Part shown: positions 33,466 to 51,376 of the stretch, piece after piece | Position numbering within the stretch: the first letter of the stretch is position 1 | How the letters are laid out: each line of letters starts with the position of its first letter | Origin: a virus | Taxonomy: Duplodnaviria; Caudoviricetes | Direction: 5' to 3' (one strand) | DNA length: 64,000 bases | IMG/VR virus record: IMGVR_UViG_3300042888_002988 | Span: 64,001-128,000 of that record | The notes under the pieces: model-generated | Told to the model about the DNA's origin: nothing | The model's database searches: none | The model's input: the letters and a program-made list of their open reading frames with translations, nothing else | Made by a program: the position numbers and the translations under genes

Positions 33466-33504
33466 TTGCCTCTTCATCAACTTTCACTTACAATACAAGC
33501 CATG
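33466..33504 (+). promoter_or_regulatory. Sigma70-like promoter, leaderless geometry
   Basis: TTGCCT-N17-TACAAT-N7-ATG(33502). Confidence 0.65.
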
Positions 33505-35265
33505 ACCACGCCATTTGCCGCGCTCGCCGTAATGACGAAATCCGCTCACGCGTATTCAGTCGAACCTTCTCGCAACACTTCACCGGTGCTGCACCCGTTC
33601 GCTCAGCTGGATCCGTTCCTCAAGGAGGCGGGGTTCTTCGGCGACGTCACGGACGGTATTTGGAACAACACCATGAAGCCGCTTGGTAACGCCGTTGGGC
33701 AGATGGGTCAAGGCGTGGGACAGGTATTTGGAGGTATGTCGGAGGGTATCGGTAACACGCTGAAAGCTGCGCCTCGCGCGATTGGCGGAGCCCTTCAGGG
33801 CGGTATGAACGCATTCAAACAGCAGCTCACACAGCCGGGCGCCGTGAGCCTGGGATCGATCGGTCAGGGTATGATGGACGGCGGCTGGAATGCCGGCAAG
33901 CAGAGCCTTGGCTGGGCGGCTGACGGCGCGATGAAGAATATGCAGGGATTCGGTAACATCGCCGGCGGCGCAGCCAAGACAGCCTGGGGCGCGAATCCCC
34001 TGGTCATGGGCGGACGCGCAGCCTACGGCGCAGGTCAAGGCGTCATGAACGGCGTCCAGAACTTCGCGAACGATCTCAAAAGCCGTATGATGCCTCAAGG
34101 CGGCACCGCTCCAGGTGGTATACCATCTGGAATGCAGATGATTCCGCCAGGACAAACGGGTTCGATCATGCACGGCCCACCGGCACCTGGGACTCCCGCG
34201 AATCCTACTCCCGCGAATCCTACTCCTGCGCCGGGCACTGTCGCGCCCGGACAAAACAACCTGCAGAACAACATGCAGCCCGCGTCCGGTTTCGGTGGTA
34301 ACATCATGATGGGCGGCGGCGACAGCAATTCCGCCATGGGCGCAGGCTATGGTGGCGGCTTCAACCCCGGCGCGCCTCCCAACATGAGCGCCTCGGCCCC
34401 GCGTCCGGCCAATGGCTCGCCGAGCCCTGTCGGCAACGCGCCATCCTATCAGGGCCCGACTGCGGCCGACTACCAGCGGACGATGGGCAGCTACAATCCG
34501 AACTCACCATTCGACCAACGCAAGGCGCAGGCGATCGACGCAGCGTGGCAGCAGAACGGCGGGAGAATGTCCCCCAACCAGATGTATCAAGCTCCCGGCT
34601 ACATGGGCATCAGCAAGTCTGGCTCGCTGACTCCGTTTGCGATTTACGAACTCGACCCCGCGGCGAGCATGGAGAAAGCCGCCATGGCCGGCGGCATTGC
34701 CGGGTGGTTGCGGGGCGCTTTGCAACGCGGTGCCCAGGGTCTCAACCGTGGATCGCGGATGGCCAAAGCGACAGCCGGCCGCACGGCCAAGACTGAAGCA
34801 AACGCAGCGCAGAAGGTGCAAGCCGGTGCTACCTCGGTTGCTGGGGATCTCCCGAAGCTGCCTACCGGCCGCGAAGCTTTCCAGACGGCTTACGCCGGTG
34901 CCGGTAACGGCCGCCAAGGCCTCGCCGATTTCATGGGCAACGCCGGACTGCGCATCGACGCCTCCCCTGGCCTGCAGAAAGCCATCAACTACGGCGCACC
35001 CGCTGCGGCGGCCGGTGGCATCTTCTACGGCGGCAACCGGATGGGTCACAGCTCCGGCCTGGACGAGGGTCTCGACAAGGGCTTCGACACCGGAGCTGAC
35101 TATGGCATTCAGGCCGCGCTCGCCAACGCACCCAAAGACCCCGGCTTCTTCGGGCGCATCGCTGACGTGTTCACCGGCCAGCAGCAAGGTCCACAGGCCT
35201 ACGACATACAATCACTTCTGGACTCCAACAAGGCGCAGATCCTCAAACAACTCCGCGGCGCTTAA
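33502..35265 (+). CDS. Gly/Pro/Met-rich KxA-delimited protein, putative internal head/ejection protein
   Basis: TPFAAL..MTKSA, HPFAQL..FLKEA, ISKSG, TPFAIY..MEKAA; low-complexity and glycine-zipper segments. Confidence 0.8.
   Translation: MTTPFAALAVMTKSAHAYSVEPSRNTSPVLHPFAQLDPFLKEAGFFGDVTDGIWNNTMKPLGNAVGQMGQGVGQVFGGMSEGIGNTLKAAPRAIGGALQGGMNAFKQQLTQPGAVSLGSIGQGMMDGGWNAGKQSLGWAADGAMKNMQGFGNIAGGAAKTAWGANPLVMGGRAAYGAGQGVMNGVQNFANDLKSRMMPQGGTAPGGIPSGMQMIPPGQTGSIMHGPPAPGTPANPTPANPTPAPGTVAPGQNNLQNNMQPASGFGGNIMMGGGDSNSAMGAGYGGGFNPGAPPNMSASAPRPANGSPSPVGNAPSYQGPTAADYQRTMGSYNPNSPFDQRKAQAIDAAWQQNGGRMSPNQMYQAPGYMGISKSGSLTPFAIYELDPAASMEKAAMAGGIAGWLRGALQRGAQGLNRGSRMAKATAGRTAKTEANAAQKVQAGATSVAGDLPKLPTGREAFQTAYAGAGNGRQGLADFMGNAGLRIDASPGLQKAINYGAPAAAAGGIFYGGNRMGHSSGLDEGLDKGFDTGADYGIQAALANAPKDPGFFGRIADVFTGQQQGPQAYDIQSLLDSNKAQILKQLRGA
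34192..34230 (+). repeat. 15-bp coding tandem repeat (TPANP), about 2.6 copies
   Basis: ACTCCCGCGAATCCT twice plus ACTCCTGCG. Confidence 0.85.
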
Positions 35266-35277
35266 TCTGAAGATCGC

Positions 35278-36342
35278 ATGACTCCATTCGCCCAACTCGA
35301 ACATGGGGCGGGCCTATCCAAAGCCGCGTCACCCGGAACTATGCTGCGCGGCCTGCATAATCTGGTGCGCGGCGGTATCTGGAAGCACGTCGCCGAGAAG
35401 ACCGCGCCGTCCGGCCTGATGGGGCGCACGGCGCGCATGTTCCACAATCCAGTTACGGATAAGTCGACCCTGTTCAGCAACGCGCTGATGGGTTACGGCC
35501 TGACCGGTATGGGGGCACAGTTGGCCGGTTACGACATGCCTGGATCCAACCTCGCGCTCAACCTGGCTACCCCGGTGCTGGGTGCGTTATTCACCGCCCC
35601 GAGTCTCATCACTTCGATGAGGGCCGGAACCGACGCCAACAAGGCGCGGATGAAGGAGGACCTGATGTCTGGGGCACGTGGCGCTGGTAGTGATATGATC
35701 TCCCTGGGACAGATGGATCATCGCTTCCTGACTCAGCCTGGCCTGGCCCAGCAATACCTCCAGCAGAACGACCCTGACACCGCCAAGCTGGTGAACCAAT
35801 ACAGCACCGGGCAACACAAGCCGATGACCGGCCTGAAGCGGATGCAGTCCATGTTCGAGAATCCCCAGGATCTTATCAACAACCAAGTCGATCAGCACAT
35901 GCACAGTTTGATGCCTCAGTCGTCGCCGTTCGGTATGCACAAGGCCGGCGGTTTCGGGTCGGCGCTTAGGGCGGGATTCTCCCACGGGTTCCCGTGGTTG
36001 TTCCCAGCGCTGGGTGTGGGCATGCTAGGGCACTCCGTAATGAGCGACAAGCCATACGACGAGACCGCCATTCGCGCGCGCGGCTACGCTGGCGGGCAGG
36101 CCAAGATCCAGCAGGAGCTGGGCAACCTCAGCGGGATGGAACGCTTTGCGCTGCAGATGGATCCTTCGATGTTCGCCAACCGCCTAGAGGCTAAGCTGCC
36201 CGGCACCATTCAGAATTGGGAGCAGCAAACGGGACAGAAGCACCAGCCTGGTCTCATCAGCAATCTCGCGAGCGGTTGGAAGAAGGGTGGCGACACCGAA
36301 TACTACAGCTACGACGCCAAGGGCGGGCGAAAATACCTCTAA
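35278..36342 (+). CDS. PFAxL-leader KxA protein with hydrophobic helices, putative ejection protein
   Basis: MTPFAQLEHGAGLSKAA; internal SPFGMHKAG; two Gly-rich hydrophobic regions. Confidence 0.8.
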   Translation: MTPFAQLEHGAGLSKAASPGTMLRGLHNLVRGGIWKHVAEKTAPSGLMGRTARMFHNPVTDKSTLFSNALMGYGLTGMGAQLAGYDMPGSNLALNLATPVLGALFTAPSLITSMRAGTDANKARMKEDLMSGARGAGSDMISLGQMDHRFLTQPGLAQQYLQQNDPDTAKLVNQYSTGQHKPMTGLKRMQSMFENPQDLINNQVDQHMHSLMPQSSPFGMHKAGGFGSALRAGFSHGFPWLFPALGVGMLGHSVMSDKPYDETAIRARGYAGGQAKIQQELGNLSGMERFALQMDPSMFANRLEAKLPGTIQNWEQQTGQKHQPGLISNLASGWKKGGDTEYYSYDAKGGRKYL

Positions 36343-36349
36343 CATCACC

Positions 36350-37213
36350 ATGCACACACCATCACCATTCGCCTGCCTGGGGGACACCCCCATGGAGAAA
36401 AAAGCCTTCGGTTCGTTGTTGCGTGGGGCCACTAACATGGTCTCGCGCCACGCTGACGACGCCGGTAAAATGCTCGCCAATAAGCAGCTGGCCAGCACCC
36501 TGATGCCGAAGGGACAGGCGTTTGACGATGCGATTATGGCATCCCTCGGTCCTCAAGGTGTTCGGAACGCGCAGCCTGTAGCGAAGGTGCGCAGCGCTCT
36601 GGATGCGGCCAACATGCGCTATCCTGCCCTATCAAGCGGTAGCACCGGGGAGTTATTAAATGGCGCGCTGGCTCAGTATCGACGCGGCGGACAGCTGGCG
36701 CCGTATCGCCTATCGCGTTTTTCCGGTCCATACGCTCACCCACGTGGAGGCTTGGATCGCGCGAACGCCGCCGCATTCCAGCGCGCGCAGCGGGAATTAG
36801 CGCGTAAAGGCCCAACTCCTTCGTCGATGGAGGAGCTACAAAAACTTTTACAGGGCAATTCCCGCGCGGCGGGTGCGCAGATGCGCTCACAATTACCGCT
36901 CGCGAATGATGGCTTGAATCTACAGATGAAACGTGATTATCTGGCACGCTTAGCGCCTAACTCACCGGCGCGCCCACGCGCGCTTCAGGCGGCTCCTGAT
37001 AATGTGCCTATAACATATTCGAATGGTGCCGCCAAACCGGCCGCACCATCAGCCGCTCCGGCCGTCGCCACTCCTCCAGCCATGCCAGCAGCAGCGGCAC
37101 CGACCGCTGCAGCCCCTCCGCCGATGCCGGTCAATAACCCGTCTGGTATGGGTATGGCGGGCAGCGTTTTAGGCGGCTTAGGAGCTGGCTATCTCGGCGC
37201 TGAGTATCTCTAA
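36350..37213 (+). CDS. PFAxL-leader KxA protein, putative internal head protein
   Basis: MHTPSPFACLGDTPMEKKA/FGSLLRG; C-terminal GMGMAGSVLGGLGAGYLG; ATG 36350. Confidence 0.8.
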   Translation: MHTPSPFACLGDTPMEKKAFGSLLRGATNMVSRHADDAGKMLANKQLASTLMPKGQAFDDAIMASLGPQGVRNAQPVAKVRSALDAANMRYPALSSGSTGELLNGALAQYRRGGQLAPYRLSRFSGPYAHPRGGLDRANAAAFQRAQRELARKGPTPSSMEELQKLLQGNSRAAGAQMRSQLPLANDGLNLQMKRDYLARLAPNSPARPRALQAAPDNVPITYSNGAAKPAAPSAAPAVATPPAMPAAAAPTAAAPPPMPVNNPSGMGMAGSVLGGLGAGYLGAEYL

Positions 37214-37227
37214 CTAGACATCAAACA

Positions 37228-38532
37228 ATGCGCACACCACCGTCACCATTCGCTTGCCTCGGGCACACTGATATCGAAAAGCAAGCATTCGCGAAGCTAC
37301 TGAAAGGCCTCTCACAGCTCGTCGCCAAAGGTGGTCGAGGCACTGGTCGGGCATTGAAGGCGGCCCCCACCGGAGCCAAGAGTCCGCAGGAACTTGGGTT
37401 CCTCAAGGGTGAGCGCACGCACCCGTATCCTACCATGAGCGAGATGCCACCGCAGCGCTCACTGCCGTCGCAGCAAGGTAACGCCGTTCCGCTCGGTGGC
37501 GTCAACGGGCCGACGCCGAAATACGACCCCACGCGTCCTAAGATGACGGTGGAGGGTCAAGGTGGTGGTAACTATGTTGTCCTCGGTGGTGGCGGCCCTT
37601 CCAAAGGTTCGCCCACCCGTTACGGCCCTTTCGGTCCGACCGACATACGTTCCAAGTTGCACGCGGCCTCCACCGGCAAGAGTCCGCAGGAAATCGGTTT
37701 CCTCAAAGGCGAGCGCACGCATCCGTATCCGACCATGGCAGAAATGCCGCCGCAGCGTTCGATCGGCAAATCCGCCGCTGATCTCAAGGAAACCGCCAAG
37801 GAAACGCTGGGGGCTACTGCAGCCGCACCGCTCGGTATGTATGCCGGGGCGTTGGCTGCGCCACAGGCTGTTGGGCGGCTGCCTGCTTTCAAAAAGCTAC
37901 CACCACATTCGGCGCTGGGTGCTATTTTATTGAGCTTGATGTATGGGGGAGCGGCTGGCGGCGGTGTGGCGGCCAATGCCGGAGCCGAATTGCTTGGTTC
38001 CGAAAAGGGCGGCGTAGGCGCTAACGTCGGGGGCACGCTCGGCGGTGCTGCCGGTGGGGCTGCCGGCCTCCACGCGGGGGTTGCTATGCAGGATCTGCCC
38101 AAGTTGAAAAATCATTCCGGCAAGGCCATGCTGCTGGCAACACTTCTTGGTGGTGTCGGCGGTGCCATGGGCGGGCGCGAACTTGGTAAGATGGCAGCAG
38201 AGGAAGAAGCACCCAAGGAGCCCAAGGAAGCACCCAAACCGAAAGAAGGGGAAGTCGATGTCCGTCGTCAACGCGACGAGAAAGCGCTGCGCAACAGGCA
38301 CATCGCACTCTCGCTGAAGCGCGGCATGTCGGGCGGCATGCTCGGCGCAATCCTGGGCGGTCTCGGCGCGGCCGGGAACGAAGGTGGTATGACCGGCGGC
38401 CAAGGCGCGCTCGCGGGAGGTGCCGGCGGCGCGTTAGCTGGCGCGGGACTCGGTGCCGCTGAAGGTGGCGTGAAGAGACTGCTGGGGCTCGACCCGATCC
38501 TAGACACCACGCTGATCGCGCAGCGTGCGTGA
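37228..38532 (+). CDS. PFAxL-leader KxA protein with several glycine zippers, putative ejection/membrane protein
   Basis: MRTPPSPFACLGHTDIEKQA/FAKLLKG; IGKSA, LGKMA; many GxxxG arrays. Confidence 0.8.
   Translation: MRTPPSPFACLGHTDIEKQAFAKLLKGLSQLVAKGGRGTGRALKAAPTGAKSPQELGFLKGERTHPYPTMSEMPPQRSLPSQQGNAVPLGGVNGPTPKYDPTRPKMTVEGQGGGNYVVLGGGGPSKGSPTRYGPFGPTDIRSKLHAASTGKSPQEIGFLKGERTHPYPTMAEMPPQRSIGKSAADLKETAKETLGATAAAPLGMYAGALAAPQAVGRLPAFKKLPPHSALGAILLSLMYGGAAGGGVAANAGAELLGSEKGGVGANVGGTLGGAAGGAAGLHAGVAMQDLPKLKNHSGKAMLLATLLGGVGGAMGGRELGKMAAEEEAPKEPKEAPKPKEGEVDVRRQRDEKALRNRHIALSLKRGMSGGMLGAILGGLGAAGNEGGMTGGQGALAGGAGGALAGAGLGAAEGGVKRLLGLDPILDTTLIAQRA
37378..37760 (+). repeat. Intragenic direct repeat, two copies of about 83 bp, 300 bp apart
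   Basis: 37378-37460 and 37678-37760 both encode KSPQE(L/I)GFLKGERTHPYPTM(S/A)EMPPQRS. Confidence 0.9.
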
Positions 38533-38540
38533 ATGAAGGA

Positions 38541-38581
38541 TTTACTCAGAAACAAAATCAGTTTACCATACAAGCATCATG
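38541..38581 (+). promoter_or_regulatory. Sigma70-like promoter, near-leaderless geometry
   Basis: TTTACT-N17-TACCAT-N9-ATG(38579). Confidence 0.5.
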
Positions 38582-40816
38582 AGCGTGGAAATCATCGACC
38601 CTAACTACCAGTGGAAGCAGGCCGCATCGCAAGAGGGCGTTGATTACGGCGCCGTGCAGAAGTCCTTCATGGACCAGAGCTACGCTGTCGTGGCCAACAA
38701 GGCCAAGATCCTGTTTCAAGATCCGTTCCGCCTCGGCTTCGAGATCGTTCACCGCAACGAGAAGGCCACGAAGATGGTCGGTATCTACGCCTTCCGTGTG
38801 AACGGCCAACTGCTGTATGCCCCGGTGTTCTTCGTCAACGGCGAGATCAAGGCCGCTGACATGCTCTACCGCGCGGACGTCAAACGCTTCGTGCCGCTCA
38901 CGGAAGACTGGTGCGCCTACTTGGTGCGCGGTGTCCACGAGAATGCCGGCGAGCCAATCGACCGCAACCGCTTCCGCCAGGCCGACGCCTACATGGACCG
39001 CCTCGCTTACCCGCAGCGCGTCAAGTATGCGAGCGAGGACGAAGAGAGAACCGCGATGCTCGCCGAGTTCCGCAAGGCTGCCGCCGACGGCAGCCTGTGG
39101 GCGGACATCATGCTGCACTGCGCAGACAACACTCCACTCCGCAAACTTCTGCCGCTGGTCATCAACGAGCACGGCCCCGAGGCGCTCGAGAAGGTCGCAG
39201 CGTTCGTCGAGAACAGCCCAACCGCAGCACGTTACCTCGCCACCCGCTATACCCGGGAGGAGCTGCAGACCGTGGACGGTTGGATGGCCAAGGAAGCTTC
39301 CGGCCCGCGCCCCGCCATTCAGATCATCACTTCGCCCACGCTGGCCAAGTCGGCCGCGTCACGTGAGCGCGTCTTCGACAAGGGCTATGACCTCGTGGAC
39401 AGCCGCCCTGCGGAATCCATCAACACGGTCATCGAGGAAGTCGGTGACGGCACCATCAAGGGGCTCTCCGCTCCGGGCAAGGTGCAAGTGCTCATGGGCG
39501 ACGGAGAGATGGTGGAAGCGTTGCTGCTTCGCCAGGATTCATCCTTGCTGCGCGAGAATGGGTATCCTACTGCGGATCCGGACATCCTCTGCAAGCCTGA
39601 ATACGTCTACTTCCCGAAGGACAAGCAGCTGCTCAAGCTCAACTACGACCAGGACATTTTCGGCGACGAAATGATCGACCAGGACACCAGCGCGAAGGCC
39701 GTCACCGCGGAGTCGCTTGCCAGCGGTAAGTGCTACGTCGCGCTCAACACGGAGCGTCTGACGATCTCCGATCCGTTCCGCGTCGACAAGTCCGAGGACG
39801 ATGGCGAATGTTCGGTCATCTCGATCACCACGCGCTACGGCGATACTGAGCAGCTCCTCTATGCGCCAGGTCGCGGCGAAACGGCCGGGAACTACATCAG
39901 CGACGAGACCTTCTTCCTAGAGGTCGAGTGCGATGTCGAAAACGGGGATAGCGGCGAAATCCGTAGCGTCAAGCCGACCTGCAACAAGGTCCTTATGACG
40001 TCCCGCACTATCGACCAATGGTTCCGCACCGCCGGTGGCTTGACTACGGCCCACGACGTGACCGTGAAGTCGAATGGCGTTTCGTTCGATGTCGAGCACC
40101 GCGAAAACGGAACGCTTCTCAAGGCTGCCCGCAATCTCGGCTGGCTCGAAACGCACTTGGCCCTCGCCGAGGACTTCTCTATCAGCACCGACAAAGCCGG
40201 CGAGATCCTCGACAAGGCCATCGATCGCGACGTGTCCTATCGCATCTACGACACCCTCAGTAAGAAGGCCTACATCACCCGGCCTGAGGGTATGCAGCAG
40301 TGGATCCAATCCTACGACCCCGAGCTGCAGGTGCAGATGGACGCGCCGCAGATTCAGACGCTGTCGACCCACACTCCTGAGCGTCCGCGCCAACAGCAGC
40401 GCTACGGCGATGTCTACAAGGGACCTCGTTCCGAGAACCGCAAGACTGCCGACGCGCTGATCCCGATGGACGCCATCATGAACCAGTCTCCAGAGGAGCT
40501 GGCGCAGATGTCCGACGCCTACGACCTGCCGCACATCTTCGACCACGGATGCGTGGGTCAGATGTCGACGAACAACTACAGCATCATCGAGCAGATCAAG
40601 CAGTATATCCCGGACCTCGAAGCAGGTGTTGACCGCCTCTTCCGAATCCTGTTCCTTCTGCGCTACCGCCCGGCGGACTTCGAAGAACTCTACGGCAAGG
40701 ATGACCTCGTGGCATTCGAGCAGGAGCTGGCCGATCTCGCCACCAGATCCGGAGACAACCTGCTGCGCATGCTGCAGCGTTTCGATCCGGATCAGTATGC
40801 GGCCCAGGAGAACTGA
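38579..40816 (+). CDS. Large head-cluster protein of unknown function with many KxA sites
   Basis: 745 aa; globular N-terminal block (GFEIV...VGIYAFRVNGQLLYAPVFFVNG); WKQAA, VKYAS, FRKAA, MAKEA, LAKSA, LLKAA, LSKKA. Confidence 0.85.
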   Translation: MSVEIIDPNYQWKQAASQEGVDYGAVQKSFMDQSYAVVANKAKILFQDPFRLGFEIVHRNEKATKMVGIYAFRVNGQLLYAPVFFVNGEIKAADMLYRADVKRFVPLTEDWCAYLVRGVHENAGEPIDRNRFRQADAYMDRLAYPQRVKYASEDEERTAMLAEFRKAAADGSLWADIMLHCADNTPLRKLLPLVINEHGPEALEKVAAFVENSPTAARYLATRYTREELQTVDGWMAKEASGPRPAIQIITSPTLAKSAASRERVFDKGYDLVDSRPAESINTVIEEVGDGTIKGLSAPGKVQVLMGDGEMVEALLLRQDSSLLRENGYPTADPDILCKPEYVYFPKDKQLLKLNYDQDIFGDEMIDQDTSAKAVTAESLASGKCYVALNTERLTISDPFRVDKSEDDGECSVISITTRYGDTEQLLYAPGRGETAGNYISDETFFLEVECDVENGDSGEIRSVKPTCNKVLMTSRTIDQWFRTAGGLTTAHDVTVKSNGVSFDVEHRENGTLLKAARNLGWLETHLALAEDFSISTDKAGEILDKAIDRDVSYRIYDTLSKKAYITRPEGMQQWIQSYDPELQVQMDAPQIQTLSTHTPERPRQQQRYGDVYKGPRSENRKTADALIPMDAIMNQSPEELAQMSDAYDLPHIFDHGCVGQMSTNNYSIIEQIKQYIPDLEAGVDRLFRILFLLRYRPADFEELYGKDDLVAFEQELADLATRSGDNLLRMLQRFDPDQYAAQEN

Positions 40817-40819
40817 CCC

Positions 40820-41761
40820 ATGAATGCCTATACGATCGACCTGCTTGCAGCGGTGGACCCAGCGTCCACCTTACCCTCGGTGCGCGCCGGCCTGATGCAG
40901 CAACAGAAGCGATTCTCGCCGCTGCACGACGCTATGCGGGACCGCTTCCTGGCGAAGTATATCCAGACCAATTTTGGCTGGTATATTGCGCGCCAGTATG
41001 CCAACCGCCAGCTGCCGTTCCCGGCCTTCCTGAGCGGGCGTGACTCCTGGGTGCACAAGGCCTACATGCTTTGCCTTGATCCGTGGGCGAACTACGACGA
41101 GCACGTCGTGGTCGCCTATCACCTGGCTCAGTTCGTGAACGGCACGCCGAACCTGAGGCAGCACCTCAAAGCTCTGCTGCTGTCATTCAGTCCGGGCTGC
41201 ACGGCGGAGTCGCACCTGCAGGAAGTCTCTCGCAACACCGGTGTGCCGGTGGCCACGCTGGACGCTTTCGAGATCCTGTTCTTCAACGTCATCGACCGCC
41301 GCGCCGATGCGCTCTACCTGGCCCAGGAGGTCTACCCAAACACTCGCCTGGTGGAGTTCGACGAGAACTACCTAAAGAACTCGACCCACGAGGACCTCAT
41401 CAAACGCGTCGCCTACAACCACCGCGACATGAACCTGACTGCCTACCTGACCGGTCTGCACGATCATTCGTTCCTGCGCAAGCTGGCCGCCAGCGAGGAT
41501 CGCGAAGCCGAGCTGACCCGGTTCCTGATGGGTAACGGGTTGATCTTGGCTCACACCAATCTTCTCAACCAGCGCACCGTCGGCCTGAGCCGGGCGTCCA
41601 CGTTGCTGGCCGCAGCCCGTCAAAGCGGCAGCAATCAGGAAGAGCCTACGCTGACCGGTATCGTGCCCATGTATAACGATGCCTTCCAGCGCGCCCTGGC
41701 AGCCAACAAGGAGATGGTTTTGGAGCAGCTGAAGGTCGACAGCGGCTTCGTCGACGTTTGA
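40820..41761 (+). CDS. Hypothetical helical protein in the head cluster, possible HTH
   Basis: LQEVSRNTGVPVATLDAFEILFFNV resembles an HTH; no clear KxA sites. Confidence 0.75.
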   Translation: MNAYTIDLLAAVDPASTLPSVRAGLMQQQKRFSPLHDAMRDRFLAKYIQTNFGWYIARQYANRQLPFPAFLSGRDSWVHKAYMLCLDPWANYDEHVVVAYHLAQFVNGTPNLRQHLKALLLSFSPGCTAESHLQEVSRNTGVPVATLDAFEILFFNVIDRRADALYLAQEVYPNTRLVEFDENYLKNSTHEDLIKRVAYNHRDMNLTAYLTGLHDHSFLRKLAASEDREAELTRFLMGNGLILAHTNLLNQRTVGLSRASTLLAAARQSGSNQEEPTLTGIVPMYNDAFQRALAANKEMVLEQLKVDSGFVDV

Positions 41762-41781
41762 TTCAACTTTTTCTTATGGGG

Positions 41782-43418: not shown

Positions 43419-44251
43419 TCTCCCACCAAAAATCCGCGGCGCTCAAAGAGCAGGCCACCAACTACCTTCAGTCGGACGACTTCAAAAGCATCGTGCCCTA
43501 CCTGATGTCGGGCGGCGTCGGAGCTTTGGCCGGCGGTGCCATGACCGGCCGCCGTCGCAAGGATAGCGGCGAAGGTCGTCTTGGCTACCTGGCGCGCATA
43601 CTTCGCAACGCTCTCATCACCGGTGGACTCGCTGGCGGCGCGCACGCGCTCCTCGACAAGGGGGTGGAGAAAACAGTCGGAAACCTATCGGACAGCTCGA
43701 AGGCCCTCACCGGCACACCCGGAGATGAAGGACCGATGGCCACCGCCACGAAGAACATTGCGTTCTCTCCTCTCACAGCCGCTGGTGCTGGCGCTGGAGC
43801 ACTGGCGCTGACCCACAACAACTCTACCATTGGGGCCGGGGACACCAGCGACGCCATGAAGCGTTTCAGTAAGGATCTCCCAGGTAAGCATGACAGCGCG
43901 TGGATGCGCACCTCGACGCCAGGCGAAATCGCGTCGACCCTGGAAGGTATCGCCGACCCGAAAAAGGTTGAGACCCTCGAACGCTTGCGTCGGGCTGCTG
44001 GAGTGCCGTCCTCGCACATCACTCCAGGTGGGAATGGTATAGGCAACCTGCTTGAGAAAATTCCTGGCATCGACGCCGCCAACGTAAAGGGCGCACTATC
44101 CTCGGCTGCGCGCCGCGGACCTTTGAGCACCTTTGGTCAATCGTGGCCTCGCCGCGCCGGTCGTGGCGCGCTTGCGCTTACAGCCGCGAGCCTCCCGGCG
44201 CTGATCGGCGCTCTCGTTACCAGTGATTCATCACCATCTTCTGCTTCCTGA
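43415..44251 (+). CDS. Gly/Ala-rich membrane-type protein with N-terminal KxA (putative ejection protein)
   Basis: MISHQKSAA; four glycine-zipper-like hydrophobic segments. Confidence 0.75.
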   Translation: MISHQKSAALKEQATNYLQSDDFKSIVPYLMSGGVGALAGGAMTGRRRKDSGEGRLGYLARILRNALITGGLAGGAHALLDKGVEKTVGNLSDSSKALTGTPGDEGPMATATKNIAFSPLTAAGAGAGALALTHNNSTIGAGDTSDAMKRFSKDLPGKHDSAWMRTSTPGEIASTLEGIADPKKVETLERLRRAAGVPSSHITPGGNGIGNLLEKIPGIDAANVKGALSSAARRGPLSTFGQSWPRRAGRGALALTAASLPALIGALVTSDSSPSSAS

Positions 44252-44254
44252 CCT

Positions 44255-45697
44255 ATGGAAAAATCATTTGCCACTGACGACCACGACCAGCTGCTGGCAG
44301 CAGCAGACGGTCACGCGTTCACATTCTTCGAACGCCCCTATGGGCGTGGCTCATTCACCAAGTCTGCGTCGGATGTCATCTCGAAGTTGGACCTGCAGAA
44401 CCACATGCCGCCCGACACCCACTTCGGCGTGCATCTCATTTCCATGGGGTCCGAGGAAGACTACGGTGCCAATCGCAACGGTGACTCTGCCTCGCGCCGT
44501 TCGCTGCAAGAATACCACCCCACCTTCGAGAAGTTTGGGAACGTGTTCCGTGAGCACAACAACAAAGATCCCCGCAAGCGCTGTGGCGACGTCAAGCTGG
44601 CTCGCTACAACCCGCGCATGCACCGAGGAGAGCTCATCGTATGGGTCGACAAGGACAAGGCGCCCGACATGTATAAAAAGGCCAAGGCCGGCGAAGAGCT
44701 GTCGTGGTCCATGTCAATGCGCCTGCCGCATGACGAATGCTCGTGCTGCCGCAAGAAGAGCAAGCGCACCACCGAGTATTGCAGCCACCTTCGCAACAAC
44801 ATGCTGCAGTTCGTGCCTGGGTTTGAAAAGTATGCCTATGCCAGGAACGAAGAAGGTGTGAAGTTTTTCGACATCAGCGAGGTGAAGCGCCGCGCGGATC
44901 GGATCGCCACATACCTGGGTTACACTTTCAGTCCGGGCGACATGGCCAAGGCCGCGTCCTCCAGCACCATCATCACCGGCGCGCAGTGGGCCGAGCATCA
45001 GTTCGGCGTATCGCGTGCTGTGCCATTCGACGCGTGGGAAGATCTCACGCTCGACAAGCTGGCCGCCGCCGAGGAGTTTGTTCGGAACGCCGATGCCAAT
45101 ACGCTCACCACGCTCTATAAGATGGCCCCGCGCGATCTTACCCGCGAGCAGATCGAAACGCTGGCCGGCCCCGACTTCCGCAACGTCGGCGGTGAGCTTG
45201 CCAAGAAGGCGATGATTATCAACTTCATGACGTTCGCGTCGATGGTCACTAACCGCTCGATCGAGGAGCTGCAGAAGGACGCCGCGCTATGCGATGCGAT
45301 GGATGAGAAAATGCCATCGCTACTCTCTGATATGGCTCGCGACGGCGGCTCCGCATGCGGCGAGGAAGTCGCTGATTCGGTGTCACCCGATGAAGTCGGC
45401 TGCTCGTTCTCGCCAGGCAAGGACAACATCGATCGCCTCATGCAAGAGGTCGGTGACGAATGCGGTATGAAACCTGAGGATGCATCCAACCGTGCGCTAA
45501 GCGTGACCATCATGAAGACCGCCGGCCTGCGCCGCTCGGGTAAACTAACCGAGGTCGACGCCTACTACAGCGGTCTGATCGCCGCATACGGACACTACGT
45601 CGTCAAGGCTGCTCACCAGATCAAGGATTTACCCGGTATCTCCGCCAACACATTGTTCCGCGGCCTGGCCGCCAGTCTTTCAGTATCCCTACGATAA
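44255..45697 (+). CDS. Prohead maturation protease (HK97/assemblin-like fold, inferred)
   Basis: GANRNGD, FREH (candidate His), GELIVW (candidate Glu), SWSMS (candidate Ser), CSCC...YCSH Zn motif; lies upstream of scaffold and capsid genes; carries its own KxA sites (FTKSA, MAKAA, IMKTA). Confidence 0.7.
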   Translation: MEKSFATDDHDQLLAAADGHAFTFFERPYGRGSFTKSASDVISKLDLQNHMPPDTHFGVHLISMGSEEDYGANRNGDSASRRSLQEYHPTFEKFGNVFREHNNKDPRKRCGDVKLARYNPRMHRGELIVWVDKDKAPDMYKKAKAGEELSWSMSMRLPHDECSCCRKKSKRTTEYCSHLRNNMLQFVPGFEKYAYARNEEGVKFFDISEVKRRADRIATYLGYTFSPGDMAKAASSSTIITGAQWAEHQFGVSRAVPFDAWEDLTLDKLAAAEEFVRNADANTLTTLYKMAPRDLTREQIETLAGPDFRNVGGELAKKAMIINFMTFASMVTNRSIEELQKDAALCDAMDEKMPSLLSDMARDGGSACGEEVADSVSPDEVGCSFSPGKDNIDRLMQEVGDECGMKPEDASNRALSVTIMKTAGLRRSGKLTEVDAYYSGLIAAYGHYVVKAAHQIKDLPGISANTLFRGLAASLSVSLR

Positions 45698-45701
45698 AAT
45701 G

Positions 45702-45730
45702 TTGCCATCGGTTCGATTTCGGTGCATAAT
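45702..45730 (+). promoter_or_regulatory. Sigma70-like promoter for the scaffold-capsid operon
   Basis: TTGCCA-N17-CATAAT, 56 nt before ATG 45787. Confidence 0.6.
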
Positions 45731-45786
45731 TCGATCGGACCTGGCGAACGCCTCAAAACAAGTCTCACATCAACCACACCAATACC

Positions 45787-46926
45787 ATGGCCGAACAACA
45801 ACACAAAGTGGCTGCGGCGATTCGCCAATACGCGGAAAAGCTCGCATCCGAAAAAGCAGCCGCCGGCGAAGGCGCACCAGACCGCTTGACTGTCGCTGAT
45901 GGTCAGGGTGGTATCACAACCTCCAAGGGAACCGTTCCAAAAGATGTCGGCCAGTCCGAGCTTGAAGTTCGCCAGCCCAAGGATGGGACCGCAGTCCAAA
46001 CCTCCAGCGCGAACGCCAGCGGCGGTGAGCGTATGACGGTGGCCGACGGTCAAGGCGGCATCACTGCCTCCAAGGGGAGCGTCCCCGCCGATCCGGGACA
46101 AGCGGAACTCGAAGTCAATCAACCCACCGACGGTTCCGTCGTGAAGGGTGCAACCATTTCCAAGCGGGCTGCCAGCATTCGCGCTGCGCTGATCAACGCC
46201 AACCCTGCGCTGGCCGAGAAGTTCGCGCCCGCCTCTCAGTCGTCCGCCGCTCCCGCAGTGAAGACGGCTGGTAACAACCAGGCTGCGGCTTCCGCTCCCA
46301 ACATTCAACTGAGCAGTGATACGCTGTGCAAGATTGCTCGAGCCATTCTCTCCTCCGACGAAGGTGTGCGTTTCGCGCACGACATGCTGGAGAAGCAAGC
46401 CGGCGAAGAAGCTGCACGCAATCAGATCATGGAGGCCATTCAGGCTTCACAGGTCTACGACGAGAGCGAGCATGTCAAACAAGCCGCTTTCAACGATCTC
46501 GGCAACAAGGCCGTGACCATTCACAACTCGCTCCTGCAAGCTGGCGTGACCGAAGACGATGCGGACTCGATCCTCAAGCAGGCTTCCGTCATCCAGGAGA
46601 AGCTCGCCGGCTACGAGCACCCGCTGCTCAAGGCTGCGTTCGCTCAAGGCATGGACGATGCCTCCCTCATGGCTGCCGCTGACGAAGCTGGCGGCGAAGA
46701 AGGTGCTCCTCCGATGGACGAAGCTCTCCCGATGGGCGGTGAGCAACTCGGCGAAGAAGAGATCATGGCGCTGCTTGAAGAGATGCTCGCCTCCGGTCAA
46801 ATCACCGAGGAAGACATCAAGACCGCAATCGGAGCCGCTGGCGGAGCCGGAGCCGAAGGAGGCATGCCTCCTGAAGGTGGCGGCGCGCCGCCCGAAGAAG
46901 CAGCCATGGCAGCCGCCGGAGCCTGA
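45787..46926 (+). CDS. Putative capsid scaffolding protein
   Basis: Ala/Glu-rich helical protein with acidic Gly/Pro tail and seven KxA sites, between protease and capsid genes. Confidence 0.65.
   Translation: MAEQQHKVAAAIRQYAEKLASEKAAAGEGAPDRLTVADGQGGITTSKGTVPKDVGQSELEVRQPKDGTAVQTSSANASGGERMTVADGQGGITASKGSVPADPGQAELEVNQPTDGSVVKGATISKRAASIRAALINANPALAEKFAPASQSSAAPAVKTAGNNQAAASAPNIQLSSDTLCKIARAILSSDEGVRFAHDMLEKQAGEEAARNQIMEAIQASQVYDESEHVKQAAFNDLGNKAVTIHNSLLQAGVTEDDADSILKQASVIQEKLAGYEHPLLKAAFAQGMDDASLMAAADEAGGEEGAPPMDEALPMGGEQLGEEEIMALLEEMLASGQITEEDIKTAIGAAGGAGAEGGMPPEGGGAPPEEAAMAAAGA
45883..46143 (+). repeat. Intragenic 114-bp direct repeat, two copies, 147 bp offset
   Basis: 45883-45996 and 46030-46143 encode R(L/M)TVADGQGGIT(T/A)SKG(T/S)VP(K/A)D(V/P)GQ(S/A)ELEV(R/N)QP(K/T)DG. 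Confidence 0.9.
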
Positions 46927-46958
46927 TCCACCCCACCCTATTTTTTACCACACAACGC

Positions 46959-47372
46959 ATGAACAAAGCAGCCTTCAGCGCAATGCTCGGTGTGATCGAT
47001 GATGCCATCGATCTCGCGGACTCCGCTGTCAAGTCCGCGGAGTTGGCGCAAAGCCGAGACGCCGAGCCAGTCACACTGGTGAAGGTCGCCGCGGAGCGCT
47101 ACCAGTCCGCTGCTGCTGAGCTCATGAAAACTGGCGCATTCCGAGACTACTCCCGGGATAGCCTCGCAAAATCTCTCGAGTCGGCCGGCCCTGCTGGTCT
47201 GCTCGGGTTTCTGGAGAAGCTGGCCTCCAGGGCTGTGTTTCCGCTCGATGTCGATTTCGGCAGCGATGGGGACCTAGTCGATAAGTCAGCCACCAACCGG
47301 ATGGATGCCCGTCCCGCTGAAAACAAGACCGACCTTTGGGAACGGTGTTGCCAAGAAGCGGGACTAAGCTGA
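46959..47372 (+). CDS. Small helical head-assembly (scaffold-like) protein
   Basis: MNKAA, LVKVA, LEKLA and VDKSA in 137 aa; position in the capsid operon. Confidence 0.65.
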   Translation: MNKAAFSAMLGVIDDAIDLADSAVKSAELAQSRDAEPVTLVKVAAERYQSAAAELMKTGAFRDYSRDSLAKSLESAGPAGLLGFLEKLASRAVFPLDVDFGSDGDLVDKSATNRMDARPAENKTDLWERCCQEAGLS

Positions 47373-47414
47373 AATGCCGGATCCGAACATACACACACCT
47401 GAAATAACAACAAT

Positions 47415-47996
47415 ATGCAATACGCACTGAATCGTCGAATCGCTCGCGCTCGCGTTCCAATGCAGGTCCTCCGTGGATTCAACCCCACCGAGCCCGGCAA
47501 GTTGTCGTTACTCGCTGCACCTATCGACGGTCAAGCGATCCAGTCAGGGATGGTGATTGTAAGAGGCACTGGCACTGTAAACGGAAAGGCATCCCAACAG
47601 GGATGGCTGAAGGCACAGGCCGCAGACTCCATTGGCGCTACTGGCGCTAACGAGGTCATCTCTTACTTCCTCGCCCTCCATGACCAGGATTCGCACGACG
47701 TCCAGGCAAGCGGCGGACTCGTTGGGCTTGATTGCTCCGACGATTACGAAGTCCAAACTGGCTACTTTGTCAAGTCTGGGTCATACGTCTTCAACTCCCC
47801 GCTTACCTGCGGAGCTGATGGCCAAGTGACTCTCGCGACGGTAACGAACGCCAACATCCTCGGATATGTGACTCGTGTCGGAAGCGGCGCTAACGGTCAG
47901 ATCCCGTATGTTGGGAAAACGCCGCCAACAGCTAACGCTGCTGACGCTGAAGTTCTCCAGTTCAAAACCTCCCGTAGCGGTCAGCGCAAGGCATAA
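47415..47996 (+). CDS. Putative head decoration/cementing protein
   Basis: Beta-rich, Gly-rich 193 aa immediately upstream of the capsid gene. Confidence 0.55.
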   Translation: MQYALNRRIARARVPMQVLRGFNPTEPGKLSLLAAPIDGQAIQSGMVIVRGTGTVNGKASQQGWLKAQAADSIGATGANEVISYFLALHDQDSHDVQASGGLVGLDCSDDYEVQTGYFVKSGSYVFNSPLTCGADGQVTLATVTNANILGYVTRVGSGANGQIPYVGKTPPTANAADAEVLQFKTSRSGQRKA

Positions 47997-48033
47997 CCTG
48001 AGCTCCTAACCAATAACCAAGAAAGAACCAGTT

Positions 48034-49017
48034 ATGTCTGACCAAAACGCAAAAGACCTGCTCATCAAGAAGCAACTCATCGACGATATCCTCGATTCCG
48101 AGGACGGCGTCGTGAAGCGCGCTTCTGCCGCCACCTCGAAAGCTACTCGGACTCAAATCCGGGAAGAAGGCTTTCAGCGTGCGATCATGTCGTTCGATAT
48201 GATCACCAACGAGGAACTCGATTACTTCGGTGATTCTGAGCTCCCCGGTGTGTGGTTCGAACTCGAGCCTGACTCGCCGCCGGCCCGTATCATCCCCTAC
48301 AATGACACCCCGAACACCTTCGCGTATCGCGCGGAGAAATACGTGGTTCTCATTTCGGTGATTACGACCGAGGAAGCGACGAAGAACGTCAACCATCTCC
48401 GTACTTACAAGACGGACATCCGCCAGATCGTCAACGACAACATGTTGCGTGACATCCACACCGCAGAAGATACCGCGTTCCTCGCGGAGGTCGACCGCCT
48501 CGTGGGTTCACCAGTCGCCTACGGCACTGTTGAAGCTGCGATCGTCGCCGGGGGCACCGGCGCTCAGAACGTGACTATGGGTACTGCTACCTTTAGTCGC
48601 GCCAACCTGAAGCGTGCCGTTAGCTACCTCATCGAGCGTCAGCTGCCAGTCGGTGTGTTCCTCGTGAACCAACGGACTGCCAACGAGTTCCTCGGCTGGG
48701 ATCGTAACGAGATGGGTGGTGATCTGTCCCAAGAGGTGGCTCGCAAGGGCCTCAAAGCTCTTGAGACGTTCGAGATGTTCGGTATCCCGTTCATCAGCAC
48801 CATCAAGAACAACCTCGTCGCCAACGGTGTGATGTACCAATTCGCTCCGCGTGAGTTCCTCGGAAACGCGCTGATGCTTGAGGACATCACTGTGACGATC
48901 AAGAAGGAGTATGACATCATCCGTATGCGTGCCCAGGAGCAAGTCGGTCTCACGATCGGCAACCCCCTCGGTCTGCAGAAGCTGAACTACACCATGTCCA
49001 GCGTCACTGGCGCCTGA
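48034..49017 (+). CDS. Major capsid protein (HK97 fold, inferred)
   Basis: 327 aa, strongly biased codons, strong terminator downstream; pattern DIRQIVNDNMLRDIHTAEDTAFL, FLVNQRTA, MFGIPFISTIK; N-terminal VVKRA pro-peptide site. Confidence 0.75.
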   Translation: MSDQNAKDLLIKKQLIDDILDSEDGVVKRASAATSKATRTQIREEGFQRAIMSFDMITNEELDYFGDSELPGVWFELEPDSPPARIIPYNDTPNTFAYRAEKYVVLISVITTEEATKNVNHLRTYKTDIRQIVNDNMLRDIHTAEDTAFLAEVDRLVGSPVAYGTVEAAIVAGGTGAQNVTMGTATFSRANLKRAVSYLIERQLPVGVFLVNQRTANEFLGWDRNEMGGDLSQEVARKGLKALETFEMFGIPFISTIKNNLVANGVMYQFAPREFLGNALMLEDITVTIKKEYDIIRMRAQEQVGLTIGNPLGLQKLNYTMSSVTGA

Positions 49018-49045
49018 TCCTTCTAGCCCTTAACAAGGCCTTCTG

Positions 49046-49075
49046 GCGCCGGTGGGAAACCACCGGCGCTTTTTT
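49046..49075 (+). terminator. Rho-independent terminator after the capsid gene
   Basis: GCGCCGGTGG-GAAA-CCACCGGCGC followed by T6. Confidence 0.9.
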
Positions 49076-49229
49076 GTTGCCGATCCGCGGCGTCTCCGTA
49101 TCTTGCTGCGGGGTTCGCCGCAAGCGGTCCAGGAGGGCGAGGAACACCTTCCCAGTCCGGCCAGTGCAAGCTGGTGCTTATCCAATGCTCCACGAAAGGC
49201 GTCGACTTCACGGTCCGACGCCTTTCGCG

Positions 49230-49268
49230 TTGCCAGCCGCGGGTTTTCATTGTAGCATACGAACCATG
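49230..49268 (+). promoter_or_regulatory. Sigma70-like promoter, leaderless geometry
   Basis: TTGCCA-N17-TAGCAT-N7-ATG(49266). Confidence 0.6.
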
Positions 49269-50327
49269 AGCGAGCCGATGACTCAACAGTTTGTAACCGC
49301 ATTCCTAACCACCTGCTTCGACGCAGGCCTGAGCAAGGAAGCCGCCGCTGAACTCCTGCAGAAGGAGTCTGTCGACGTAGAGCTTCGTCGACGCCCAGCG
49401 TTCGCAGAAGGTTATCTGAAACAGGCATCAATGTTCCCGGGTCAGCTATGCCCCGCGCTGCGTGTCCGTTCCGCCCGCTCCGAGATGGAGAAGGCAGCTT
49501 TGCTGAAGGGGCTCGGCCGCGCTGGTAAGGCGCTGCTGTGGGATGCTCCTGCTGGTATCGCTCAGTCGCTCTTCGGAGCGGGAAAAGGCGTAGCTAAAGG
49601 CGTGGGGCGCACCTTTGGCCCACAGAAAGCCTCGCTCTTGGAGCGCTATCCGTTCACCGTCGGTATGGCGGGCATGGCCGGCGTCGGGGCCGGCACTTAC
49701 GGCCTGACGAAGTGGCTCAACCAGGACAACGGTCTGGGTGCCAATAGCAATGATCCATTCCTCCCACCAGGCGGCTACAGCAAGGCGCAATACGACGCCA
49801 TGTATGAGAACCGCCTCAAGGAACACGAGCCTGGTATCTTCTCCACCAACAAGGAATATGACTCTAGCGCTGGCCGTATCGCTGAGCTGCAGAAAGAGAT
49901 CGAGGAAGGTCGCGGCGGTAGTAACGCCTATCAGGAACTTCAACAACTGGAGCGCCGCCGTGGCAGCCTCGGCGGTGCCCGCTCGGACTACACCGAGCAA
50001 CTGGACATGAACCAGGATTCGAGCCGCGACCTCATGTCCCGGATCGCCAACCGCACTGCGGATCTTGAGAATCAGCGCACCGCTTGGTGGGCCGCGCCGA
50101 AGCGTTGGCTGATGCAGGCCCGCGGTGGCGATCTGTTCGACTCCAGCATCTCACAACGCCACTTCGACCGTCAGATCGGCGGTCTGCAGGACAACTCGGC
50201 GCGCGCCAGGATGCAAGAGCGTCTGGCTGCGGATCGGGCCAAGCTCGTACGCGGCGGTGCCACCGGGCGTTCCGCGCCTCAGCGCACCCAGGAACAGCTC
50301 ACCACGGATTTCTTCCCCGCCTACTAA
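49266..50327 (+). CDS. KxA protein with amphipathic helix, TM and coiled coil (putative ejection protein)
   Basis: LSKEA, YLKQA, MEKAA/LLKGLGRAGKALLW; FTVGMAGMAGVGAGTYGL hydrophobic segment. Confidence 0.75.
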   Translation: MSEPMTQQFVTAFLTTCFDAGLSKEAAAELLQKESVDVELRRRPAFAEGYLKQASMFPGQLCPALRVRSARSEMEKAALLKGLGRAGKALLWDAPAGIAQSLFGAGKGVAKGVGRTFGPQKASLLERYPFTVGMAGMAGVGAGTYGLTKWLNQDNGLGANSNDPFLPPGGYSKAQYDAMYENRLKEHEPGIFSTNKEYDSSAGRIAELQKEIEEGRGGSNAYQELQQLERRRGSLGGARSDYTEQLDMNQDSSRDLMSRIANRTADLENQRTAWWAAPKRWLMQARGGDLFDSSISQRHFDRQIGGLQDNSARARMQERLAADRAKLVRGGATGRSAPQRTQEQLTTDFFPAY

Positions 50328-50333
50328 TCAGCC

Positions 50334-50756
50334 ATGTCCGACGTCATCACCATTGCTGATGTCCGCGAGGACATGCTTGATCGCCAAGCTGAAGACCATT
50401 TGGTCCTGACCGACCTAGCGTTCACTGACCCGGACATCGAGTGGGCCATGAAGGCATGCATGCGCAAATTCAACGGGATCAGACCGATCGGTATCAACAT
50501 CTCGTGGGATGCGATGCCGAGCAACACGTCGGTGTTCTTCGACGGCGTCGCTTGGGCGCTGTGCCGCCGCTGGCACCGCAACGTCAGCATGAACGACTAC
50601 GACTACTCGGCCGGCGGTGTGACAGCCAACGTGCAGGGATCACTGCTGAAGAACCTGGAGCGCCTGCGCGACAAGTTGGAGCAGGAGTTCGTCGAGGCCG
50701 CCACCAATTTGAAGGTATCTGCTAACCTTGATGATGCATGGGGGGTAATAGGATGA
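50334..50756 (+). CDS. Putative head-tail adaptor (neck protein)
   Basis: 140-aa helical protein (ITIADVREDM...DIEWAM...DYSAGGVTA) downstream of the capsid gene. Confidence 0.55.
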   Translation: MSDVITIADVREDMLDRQAEDHLVLTDLAFTDPDIEWAMKACMRKFNGIRPIGINISWDAMPSNTSVFFDGVAWALCRRWHRNVSMNDYDYSAGGVTANVQGSLLKNLERLRDKLEQEFVEAATNLKVSANLDDAWGVIG

Positions 50757-51376
50757 CACCGTTCGCACGACTGGAACCAATGATGCTGAAGAGGGCCGGA
50801 ACGCAGCCCTTCCCGTTCGCTCCGCAATACATGCCGGGGCGAGTTCCGCAACCGATGCCAGACCCTGGGCAAGCGCCGGCCGCGCCTGATGAAGGCGGTT
50901 GGGGCTGGAAAGACACCGGCGGCCTGGCGCTGGATATCGCAGCCGGATCCAACCCGTTCACCGGCGTCCCATACTACGGCTACAAGGCGTTCAACGATTT
51001 CAAGGACGGGAACATCTGGTCCGGGCTCGGCAACGTCGCCTGGGGCGCGGCGTCCTTCTTGCCCGGCGCCGGATCTGCAGCCAAAGGCATCGTAGGCGGT
51101 ATCTCTCGTGGTGCCGCGAAAATGACCCCAGGTTTCGTCAAGTCTATGCAGACTGGCGGTAAGCTGTCGGCTGGTATGACCAAGGGTATTGGCACTGGAA
51201 GCTTGGTCGGCGGCCTGGGCGCAACGGGGATGGGTATGTATACCGGCGAAGGCATGCCGCAGCAACCCCAGCAACAGCCGATGATGCCGCAGCAGATGCC
51301 GCAGCAACAGCAGCCATTCAACTTCATCGACCACTCGATCAACACCATCCGCGGCACGCAGGGTGCAGCACCATAA
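50753..51376 (+). CDS. PFAxL-leader KxA protein, Gly-rich (putative ejection protein)
   Basis: MTPFARLEPMMLKRA/G; glycine-zipper helices; PQQ tail. Confidence 0.75.
   Translation: MTPFARLEPMMLKRAGTQPFPFAPQYMPGRVPQPMPDPGQAPAAPDEGGWGWKDTGGLALDIAAGSNPFTGVPYYGYKAFNDFKDGNIWSGLGNVAWGAASFLPGAGSAAKGIVGGISRGAAKMTPGFVKSMQTGGKLSAGMTKGIGTGSLVGGLGATGMGMYTGEGMPQQPQQQPMMPQQMPQQQQPFNFIDHSINTIRGTQGAAP

Follow-up and report, generated by a model that had tools for sequence, protein, structure and literature searches.

The stretch of DNA analysed here (the window, 64,000 nucleotides (nt)) comprises bases 64001-128000 of the 200,158-bp virus record IMGVR_UViG_3300042888_002988, with ~60% G+C, and nearly all of its genes lie on the + strand. 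It holds a head-gene block of an uncultured ~200-kb phage. In the first part of this block, a piece of RNA polymerase beta' is followed by open reading frames (ORFs, named here by their first position) 33502, 35278, 36350 and 37228, then by ORF 38579 and three more ORFs. The second part runs from the protease gene 44255 through a scaffold-like gene (45787), a decoration-like gene (47415) and the major capsid protein gene (48034) to ORFs 49266 and 50334 and, finally, ORF 50753. Five Gly-rich proteins of the block, encoded by ORFs 33502, 35278, 36350, 37228 and 50753, are headed by the same short leader, of consensus [T/S]-P-F-A-x-L ... K-x-A. A first-pass annotation of the window had drawn attention to these five N-termini as candidate capsid-targeting sequences; all five were recovered at the positions given there, each at an ATG start.

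The five leaders are 15–20 amino acids (aa) long, and their fuller form is [T/S]-[P/A]-F-A-x-L-(0-10 aa)-[L/M]-x-K-x-A. When the whole genome (200,158 bp) was searched in six-frame translation with a strict pattern, PFA.[LFY].{0,12}K.A, seven matches were obtained between positions 33511 and 50759; all seven were in coding frames and in the head block, and five of them were at ATG starts. In a residue-shuffled proteome, the same pattern was found 0.08 times on average and at most three times (2000 shuffles). Because the pattern was written post hoc, its independent replication in a relative, G001 (184 kb, 65–77% protein identity), weighs more: there, four of four strict matches fell in the head block, in the equivalent genes.

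When the leaders were removed, BLASTP of the five proteins, with two adjacent ORFs included, gave no pair at E < 0.1. The earlier description of the leader-bearing ORFs as unrelated needs one correction, for ORFs 36350 and 37228, which have ~40 N-terminal residues in common at 49% identity and which, judged by these residues, are partial paralogs. The DNA of this pair is also alike, as had been noticed before (54 nt at 76% identity), and no other DNA similarity was found between the leaders. That the shared leader stems from a repeat or regulatory element in the DNA was accordingly rejected, the DNA similarity being limited to 36350/37228. Two further candidates were examined at ORF 49266. Its N-terminal F..F..C..GL(S/T)KEA looks folded, and the Lys is lost in the relatives L010 and L014, so it was not accepted as a sixth leader gene; a TPFAL in frame 5' of its start has no K-x-A and precedes the start used by homologs.

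Table 1. Leaders and neighbouring features of the head-gene block (positions in the window; ↓, putative cut).
Feature	Position	Strand	Remarks
RNA polymerase beta' piece (multisubunit enzyme)	31561-33450		phrog_2962/3015
Four Gly/Ala/Pro-rich leader-bearing genes, presumed internal head/ejection proteins	33502..38532	+	Directly 3' of the beta' piece
Leader 1 of ORF 33502-35265, MTTPFAALAVMTKSA	33502..33546	+	Leader kept in the homologous N-termini of G001 and L008
Second leader copy in ORF 33502, HPFAQLDPFLKEA	33592..33630	+	Residues 31-43; followed at once by GFFGDV, the conserved mature start
Internal leader cassette in ORF 33502, KSG↓SL-TPFAIYELDPAASMEKAA↓	34615..34683	+	Leader is residues 377-394; putative cut site on each side
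Leader of ORF 35278-36342, MTPFAQLEHGAGLSKAA	35278..35328	+	
Weak internal site SPFGMHKAG in ORF 35278	35923..35949	+	Residues 216-224
Leader of ORF 36350-37213, MHTPSPFACLGDTPMEKKA	36350..36406	+	Variable-slot gene
Leader of ORF 37228-38532, MRTPPSPFACLGHTDIEKQA	37228..37287	+	Variable-slot gene
745-aa conserved virion-type protein	38579..40816	+	Homolog of Arash gp218 "structural protein"
Head maturation protease, 480 aa	44255..45697	+	phrog_18299, E 2.3e-8
Scaffold-like acidic Ala/Glu/Gly-rich protein	45787..46926	+	Conserved N-terminal K-x-A-[SA]; 14 K.A vs 3.7 expected
Major capsid protein, 327 aa	48034..49017	+	phrog_2522; 27% identity to Arash gp226
Leader of ORF 50753-51376, MTPFARLEPMMLKRA	50753..50797	+	

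No close phage was found in the INPHARED collection by DNA searches or by searches with the 745-aa protein of ORF 38579, and IMG/VR yielded one relative only. On the other hand, homologs of the capsid protein and of the 745-aa protein are abundant in metagenomes (the contigs reach 217 kb) and are all labelled "hypothetical"; among cultured phages, Salmonella phage Arash is the closest (27% identity in the capsid protein). For seven homologs of the 745-aa protein (28–70% identity), we fetched the upstream regions, together with two capsid-anchored loci, and counted 38 leaders in nine related genomes. Between the polymerase gene and the 745-aa gene lies a slot of 1–5 genes, depending on the genome, nearly all of them leader-headed. 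ORF 35278 is a core cargo gene of this slot, present in all fetched relatives except the most distant one, L014, and directly 5' of ORF 38579 there are 0–2 mutually unrelated genes per genome, each headed by a leader. In L011, the slot contains five leader genes in a row (PTAFASLNTLQKQA, MTPFAALGSDLEKQA, MHPFAQLEKQA and, twice, MTPFAQLEKSA), and a sixth lies 3' of the capsid gene. The leader persists as the identity of the neighbouring 745-aa protein falls from 70% to 43%.

The family of ORF 50753 allowed a broader comparison. A profile-free search against 1.8 billion cluster representatives returned 44 clusters, and 28 of the 44 representatives (clustered at 50% identity) begin with the canonical leader, M-T-P-F-A-Q-L-..-E-K-S-A; in several of the non-canonical clusters, the called gene start falls within the leader or the leader is a variant one. 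In the 28 clusters, the leader has a median length of 14 aa (range 11–26 aa), and its site has Leu/Met at P5, Glu at P4, Lys at P3 and Ala/Gly/Ser at P1. The 30 residues that follow the leader are highly variable. Since the residues beyond the site vary in this way, the leader must be under selection of its own.

The form of the leader changes in concert within a genome. Every cargo gene of six genomes has [T/S]-[P/A]-F-A-x-L, and most cargo genes of two more distant genomes have x-Y-H-x-L instead (three of three in L013(/L005) and three of five in L012). These YH-type leaders are MSHYHALADPLTKES, MNSYHILAKQA, MSLYHALAKRA, MSFYHALATSPLTKQA, MNRYHRLGGLEKSA and MNSYHLLAKSA; the remaining two leaders of L012 are a Y-Q variant and a degenerate one. 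In L014, the leader is MRHSTFLRLALTRIKHA, an FLRL form seen in this one genome. Because the leader form shifts together within a genome, a common, co-evolving partner is implied.

The leader is also reused inside proteins. The first-pass annotation had listed several internal recurrences, and of these the two copies in ORF 33502 hold up well, whereas SPFGMHKAG in ORF 35278 is weak: its homologs lack PF and carry KQA or KGA/KAA at the corresponding place, and from this alignment it is probably just a K-x-G processing site. The K-x-A↓G junction that follows the second copy of ORF 33502, before GF(F/W)GDV, is kept in L008 and reads KQA↓G in G001. Among the internal leaders of ORF 33502 homologs, five of five have K-x-A/G 0–2 residues before [T/S]-[P/A]-F: KSG-SL-TPFA...EKAA in the window, KRA-SL-TPFACFDMQKEA in G001, KGA-AV-SPFAALELEKSA in L008, and both KSA-FASLEKLA and KSA-SV-TAFAVLEGDMEKSA in L009. 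With such a site on either side, the internal copies could, as their sequences suggest, be excised as cassettes. Furthermore, module B, which stands behind the internal leader of ORF 33502, is a stand-alone gene in L011, where it starts with MTPFAALGSDLEKQA; therefore, by gene fusion, a putative cut site took the place of a start codon while the leader was kept.

The proteins that carry the leader consist of 10–19% Gly and 10–19% Ala and have a few Gly-zipper-like hydrophobic stretches. Such a composition fits internal or ejection proteins. Searches of PHROGs, Pfam and the ESM Atlas with the cargo proteins gave no match. ORF 37228 contains an 84-nt direct repeat (37377-37460 and 37677-37760, 85% identity), which encodes KSPQE(L/I)GFLKGERTHPYPTM(S/A)EMPPQRS twice.

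The K-x-A end of the leader is found in other head proteins as well. In the head block, K.A occurs 73 times compared with 35.9 expected from composition, and in the rest of the genome 252 times compared with 243 expected. K-x-A sites are present in the capsid protein, the scaffold, the protease and the 745-aa protein, and none of them is preceded by PFAxL. In the major capsid protein, V-K-x-A-S at residues 26-31 is kept in 29 of the 29 homologs listed, from an alignment of 116 proteins, and the Arash capsid protein has LVKEAG at the matching place. Similarly, a K-x-A is conserved near the N-terminus in homologs of ORF 46959. The 745-aa protein has near-invariant K and A at positions 149/151, 205/207, 238/240 and 257/259, and these pairs surround a segment that varies by >100 residues in length. 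In its AlphaFold2 model (51 homologs; predicted local distance difference test (pLDDT) 75.6), the pLDDT drops below 50 around sites 147-151 and 237-240, which are taken to be in disordered loops. The modelled fold consists of several small beta domains and a C-terminal helical bundle; the gene lies where a portal gene might be expected. An assignment of ORF 38579 as the portal was dropped; by Foldseek the model has no portal match in the PDB, and the protein matches the "structural protein" gp218 of Arash.

The head maturation protease of ORF 44255 was matched by tblastn, over residues 54-236, to Arash gp222, to proteins of Vibrio phages D69/D148/D181 and to Bacillus phage G gp19. It has two invariant sites of the same kind, FTKSA↓S near its N-terminus (residues 34-39) and MAKAA↓S (residues 230-235), the latter being the point beyond which the Arash and phage G proteases are no longer similar, at the end of the protease domain. 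K-x-A is thus conserved at domain boundaries. The part of the protein after MAKAA comprises 245 residues and is helical. Among the matches listed by Foldseek, T4 gp21 (5jbl) had the top probability, 0.63, but with E 1.3 and from a model with pLDDT 61; in VIA-align, T4 gp21 ranked first with Z 5.4, tied with unrelated folds. No Foldseek match was significant, and these results are consistent with a structural likeness to T4 gp21 but no proof of it. The protease also has an invariant Cys162, Cys165, Cys176 and His178 (DECSCC...YCSHL), an arrangement that resembles a zinc-binding insert within the protease domain. Of the capsid-anchored relatives, the one that diverges most (L004:5053-7764) has its protease called as a 903-aa product, which may be fused with the preceding gene.

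Could this leader serve as an address that takes proteins into the head and is then clipped off? That it is a shared tag under selection is almost certain. We also consider it likely, from the conserved sites, that the phage protease removes the leader at K-x-A. Since K-x-A recurs, without PFAxL, at family-invariant positions of the major capsid protein, the scaffold, the 745-aa protein and the protease, it is most likely a cutting site of the ORF 44255 protease, and h-x-K-x-A↓ (h, hydrophobic) is read as the site of this enzyme because K-x-A matches the P3-x-P1 layout of known prohead-protease sites. In this respect, the T4-like removal by a head protease that had been proposed from the window agrees with the conserved sites, as the end of the leader matches those of the capsid protein, scaffold and protease. 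TPFAxL, in turn, is best explained as a docking element, because it is found on cargo only, is dispensable at the other sites and covaries within genomes; that it is a capsid-targeting element we regard as a serious but tentative proposition. Taking these parts together, we moderately favor the view that the peptide is a removable propeptide that marks Gly/Ala-rich internal head proteins, probably ejected ones, as a load-and-clip tag of the T4 kind.

Cleavage, the position of the cut, the location of the cargo in the virion and the targeting role are all inferred here, and the following sequence of events is proposed. TPFAxL would dock the cargo to the core or shell of the assembling prohead, leading to its enclosure. 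The ORF 44255 protease would then clip off the leader, cutting after the Ala of hydrophobic-x-K-x-A, by analogy with the proteases of T4 and of phiKZ-type phages, and internal leader copies would be clipped on both sides. The same K-x-A site, without TPFAxL, would be used in the capsid protein, the scaffold, the protease and the 745-aa protein. A cut by a host protease was also considered, as proteases of the Prp type cleave F-A↓S and could act at PFA; it was set aside, since the conserved K-x-A and the phage protease explain the data better. In a bolder version, which we consider possible but doubtful, the leader is a two-part address: TPFAxL or xYHxL would form a docking helix for a co-evolving pocket in the core or shell, K-x-A would represent a new class of protease specificity, and the clade variants would be packaging tags orthogonal to one another. 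Membrane-active cargo proteins from an open-ended, exchangeable repertoire, and perhaps also the large, K-x-A-punctuated polyproteins encoded upstream, would thereby be loaded for delivery.

Several points weigh against a load-and-clip tag. The strict pattern and the K.A statistic were both defined after the data had been seen. The fold assignment of the protease is weak, with a Foldseek E > 1 and a VIA-align Z shared with unrelated folds. Some conserved K-x-A sites, such as that of residues 204-208 in the 745-aa protein, are modelled confidently as helix by AlphaFold2 and may escape cutting. The distant relative Arash has K-x-A motifs but no PFAxL leader, and its virion proteome (PMC10585845), which covers homologs of neighbouring genes only, is uninformative on the leader. 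Cleavage is evidently independent of PFAxL, as the capsid and scaffold sites are without it; this fits a separate role for PFAxL, but targeting is not thereby established. Finally, for targeting alone, one leader per polyprotein would suffice, yet internal copies persist.

The last of these points bears on the main rival to targeting, in which the whole leader is an extended processing signal: TPFAxL would be an exosite or safety catch that governs the timing and efficiency of cutting at K-x-A, and other regions of the cargo proteins would determine whether they enter the prohead. Membrane-active Gly-zipper proteins, for example, might in this way be held inactive until enclosed in the head, and the hydrophobic, Gly-rich segments of the cargo are in keeping with such a role. 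The retention of internal leaders in polyproteins, with sites on both sides, suits processing better than an address. The N-terminus of the protease is itself leader-like (F-x-F-F-E...h-T-K-S-A), but its FTFF strand belongs, in the model, to a barrel that aligns with T4 gp21 and is probably structural rather than a leader. Moreover, K-x-A is conserved without PFAxL in the capsid protein, the scaffold, the protease and the 745-aa protein, so that an exosite is seemingly unneeded. Overall, we regard a purely processing role as rather unlikely.

Considerably less probable is that the leader is read by a host factor or another phage factor, as an N-terminus that would bring aggregation-prone, Gly-rich proteins to a chaperone or a membrane. 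There is precedent in T4, where the N-terminus of gp23 directs proteins to GroEL, and the cargo here is of low complexity and partly hydrophobic. T4 propeptides also have other known roles (PMC10052503). Against this, the leaders, inspected by eye (e.g., MTPFAQLEKSA), lack both the hydrophobic core and the charge pattern by which Sec, Tat and lipoprotein signals are recognised (a positively charged n-region, 7–15 hydrophobic core residues and an A-x-A or lipobox site); the covariation of PFAxL versus YHxL within phage genomes points to a phage-encoded partner; and the leader always ends in the K-x-A of the head block. Least probable is that the leader has no dedicated function and marks diverged paralogs whose N-terminus was kept by descent or gene conversion: the tandem pair 36350/37228, with its common DNA and N-terminal residues, would suit this, but the other leaders have no DNA similarity, the leader is conserved over the 70–43% range of neighbour identity while the residues after it vary, it is retained at fusion joints with an extra cut site upstream, and its form shifts jointly across the cargo genes of a genome.

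A leader that docks cargo and is then removed has its closest parallel in the capsid-targeting sequence (CTS) of T4, a 10–20-residue N-terminal propeptide on IPI, IPII, IPIII and Alt that is cut by the gp21 prohead protease (Mullaney and Black 1996, summarised in PMC5694885). Prohead-protease sites are L/I-x-E in T4 and A/S/G-x-E in SPN3US (PMC5694885, PMC10052503). Like the T4 CTS, the leader is a short N-terminal peptide common to otherwise unrelated proteins, its genes are clustered, it is portable between cargo genes and its end matches conserved K-x-A sequences of the capsid protein and scaffold, the putative sites of the head protease. Unlike the CTS, it has no similarity to MKTYQEFIAE; its end is h-x-K-x-A/G/S, with Ala at P1 and Lys at P3, and in no case L/I-x-E; it is built in two parts with a linker of 0–10 aa; and copies with sites on both sides occur inside polyproteins. 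The phage is not T4-like either, with its capsid protein of 327 aa and Arash, at 27% identity, as its nearest cultured kin. Compared with the L/I-x-E leaders of T4-like phages, the leader differs, by sequence, in motif, two-part build and lineage, and the protease resembles T4 gp21 weakly; on the present evidence the leader would work like the T4 CTS by analogy, not as a strict member of that class. The portable packaging tag proposed in the first-pass annotation is partly supported, as the leader is portable, selected, conserved at the protein level, limited to the head block in two complete genomes and changed in concert, whereas its likeness to T4 is an analogy.

The other known systems share fewer features with the leader. 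As in phiKZ and SPN3US (gp245 protease), this is a jumbo phage in which many head proteins would be processed by one protease at a P3-x-P1 motif, here predicted from sequence. The SPN3US protease removes its own C-terminal part, as the present one may do, and propeptides are thought to target cargo to the head (PMC10052503, PMC5694885). In phiKZ-type phages, as here, an RNA polymerase gene adjoins the head genes, and the polymerase of Arash is virion-associated (PMC10585845). On the other hand, the propeptides of SPN3US are mostly 111–254 residues long, with no single short tag and a motif that ends in Glu, compared with 11–26 aa and K-x-A here. No homology of the capsid or cargo proteins to phiKZ-like or SPN3US proteins was detectable. 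The assemblin of herpesviruses, broadly of the same fold class as the phage prohead proteases, has maturation and release sites of the form (V/L/I)-x-A↓S. These resemble the present sites in having Ala at P1 and, often, Ser or Ala at P1', but they belong to another virus realm and to a system with no common N-terminal cargo tag, and Lys at P3 is specific to the present phage family. Encapsulin cargo-loading peptides are also short and dock cargo inside an HK97-fold shell, as is proposed here; unlike the leader, they are usually C-terminal and not removed by a protease, and they bear no sequence resemblance to it. A head-protease site with Lys at P3 and Ala at P1 was not found in the literature cited here (PMC5694885, PMC10052503, PMC10585845).

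If the proposed reading is correct, loading by tagging, enclosing and clipping in the manner of T4 would extend to an unrelated, abundant and uncharacterised lineage of ~200-kb phages, and head proteases would have a new type of site, with Lys at P3 and Ala at P1. It would also provide a simple sequence rule by which genes for injected proteins could be predicted in these phages. The clade-specific variants of the leader are natural covariation data for finding its receptor and could be adopted as short, orthogonal tags to load HK97-fold shells with cargo. The principle as such is known from T4; the gain would be in breadth and in a new motif, not in a new concept.

Some further features of the genome were observed. 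Upstream of the head block, the large ORFs 13441-16272, 20927-26256 and 27120-27695 start with or hold K-x-A sites (MLMLHKQAA; LIQKEAF), and one upstream ORF has a distant leader-like sequence, KPFATNAPMSRRVFFDKSIRKAA, at window position 15796. No Shine-Dalgarno sequence was found in the 25 nt 5' of 21 gene starts between 31585 and 52917; these regions are A/C-rich instead (e.g., acatcaaacaATG), which hints at a host that initiates translation without Shine-Dalgarno pairing. The homolog of Arash gp204, annotated there as the portal, had no PHROG match; it lies outside the window and is split over the two ends of the record (G000:C1:199588-200145 and 10-354; L025 and L026). The break in the linear record therefore probably falls within this gene, a sign that the assembly is circularly permuted or circular. 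The beta' piece is 629 aa long here compared with 988–999 aa in four relatives (L009:2724-5690, L010:4261-7248, L011:2723-5722 and L014:4787-7774), in which the longer genes have LAGLIDADG and Hint matches in Pfam; this difference in length is a presence/absence polymorphism of an intein.

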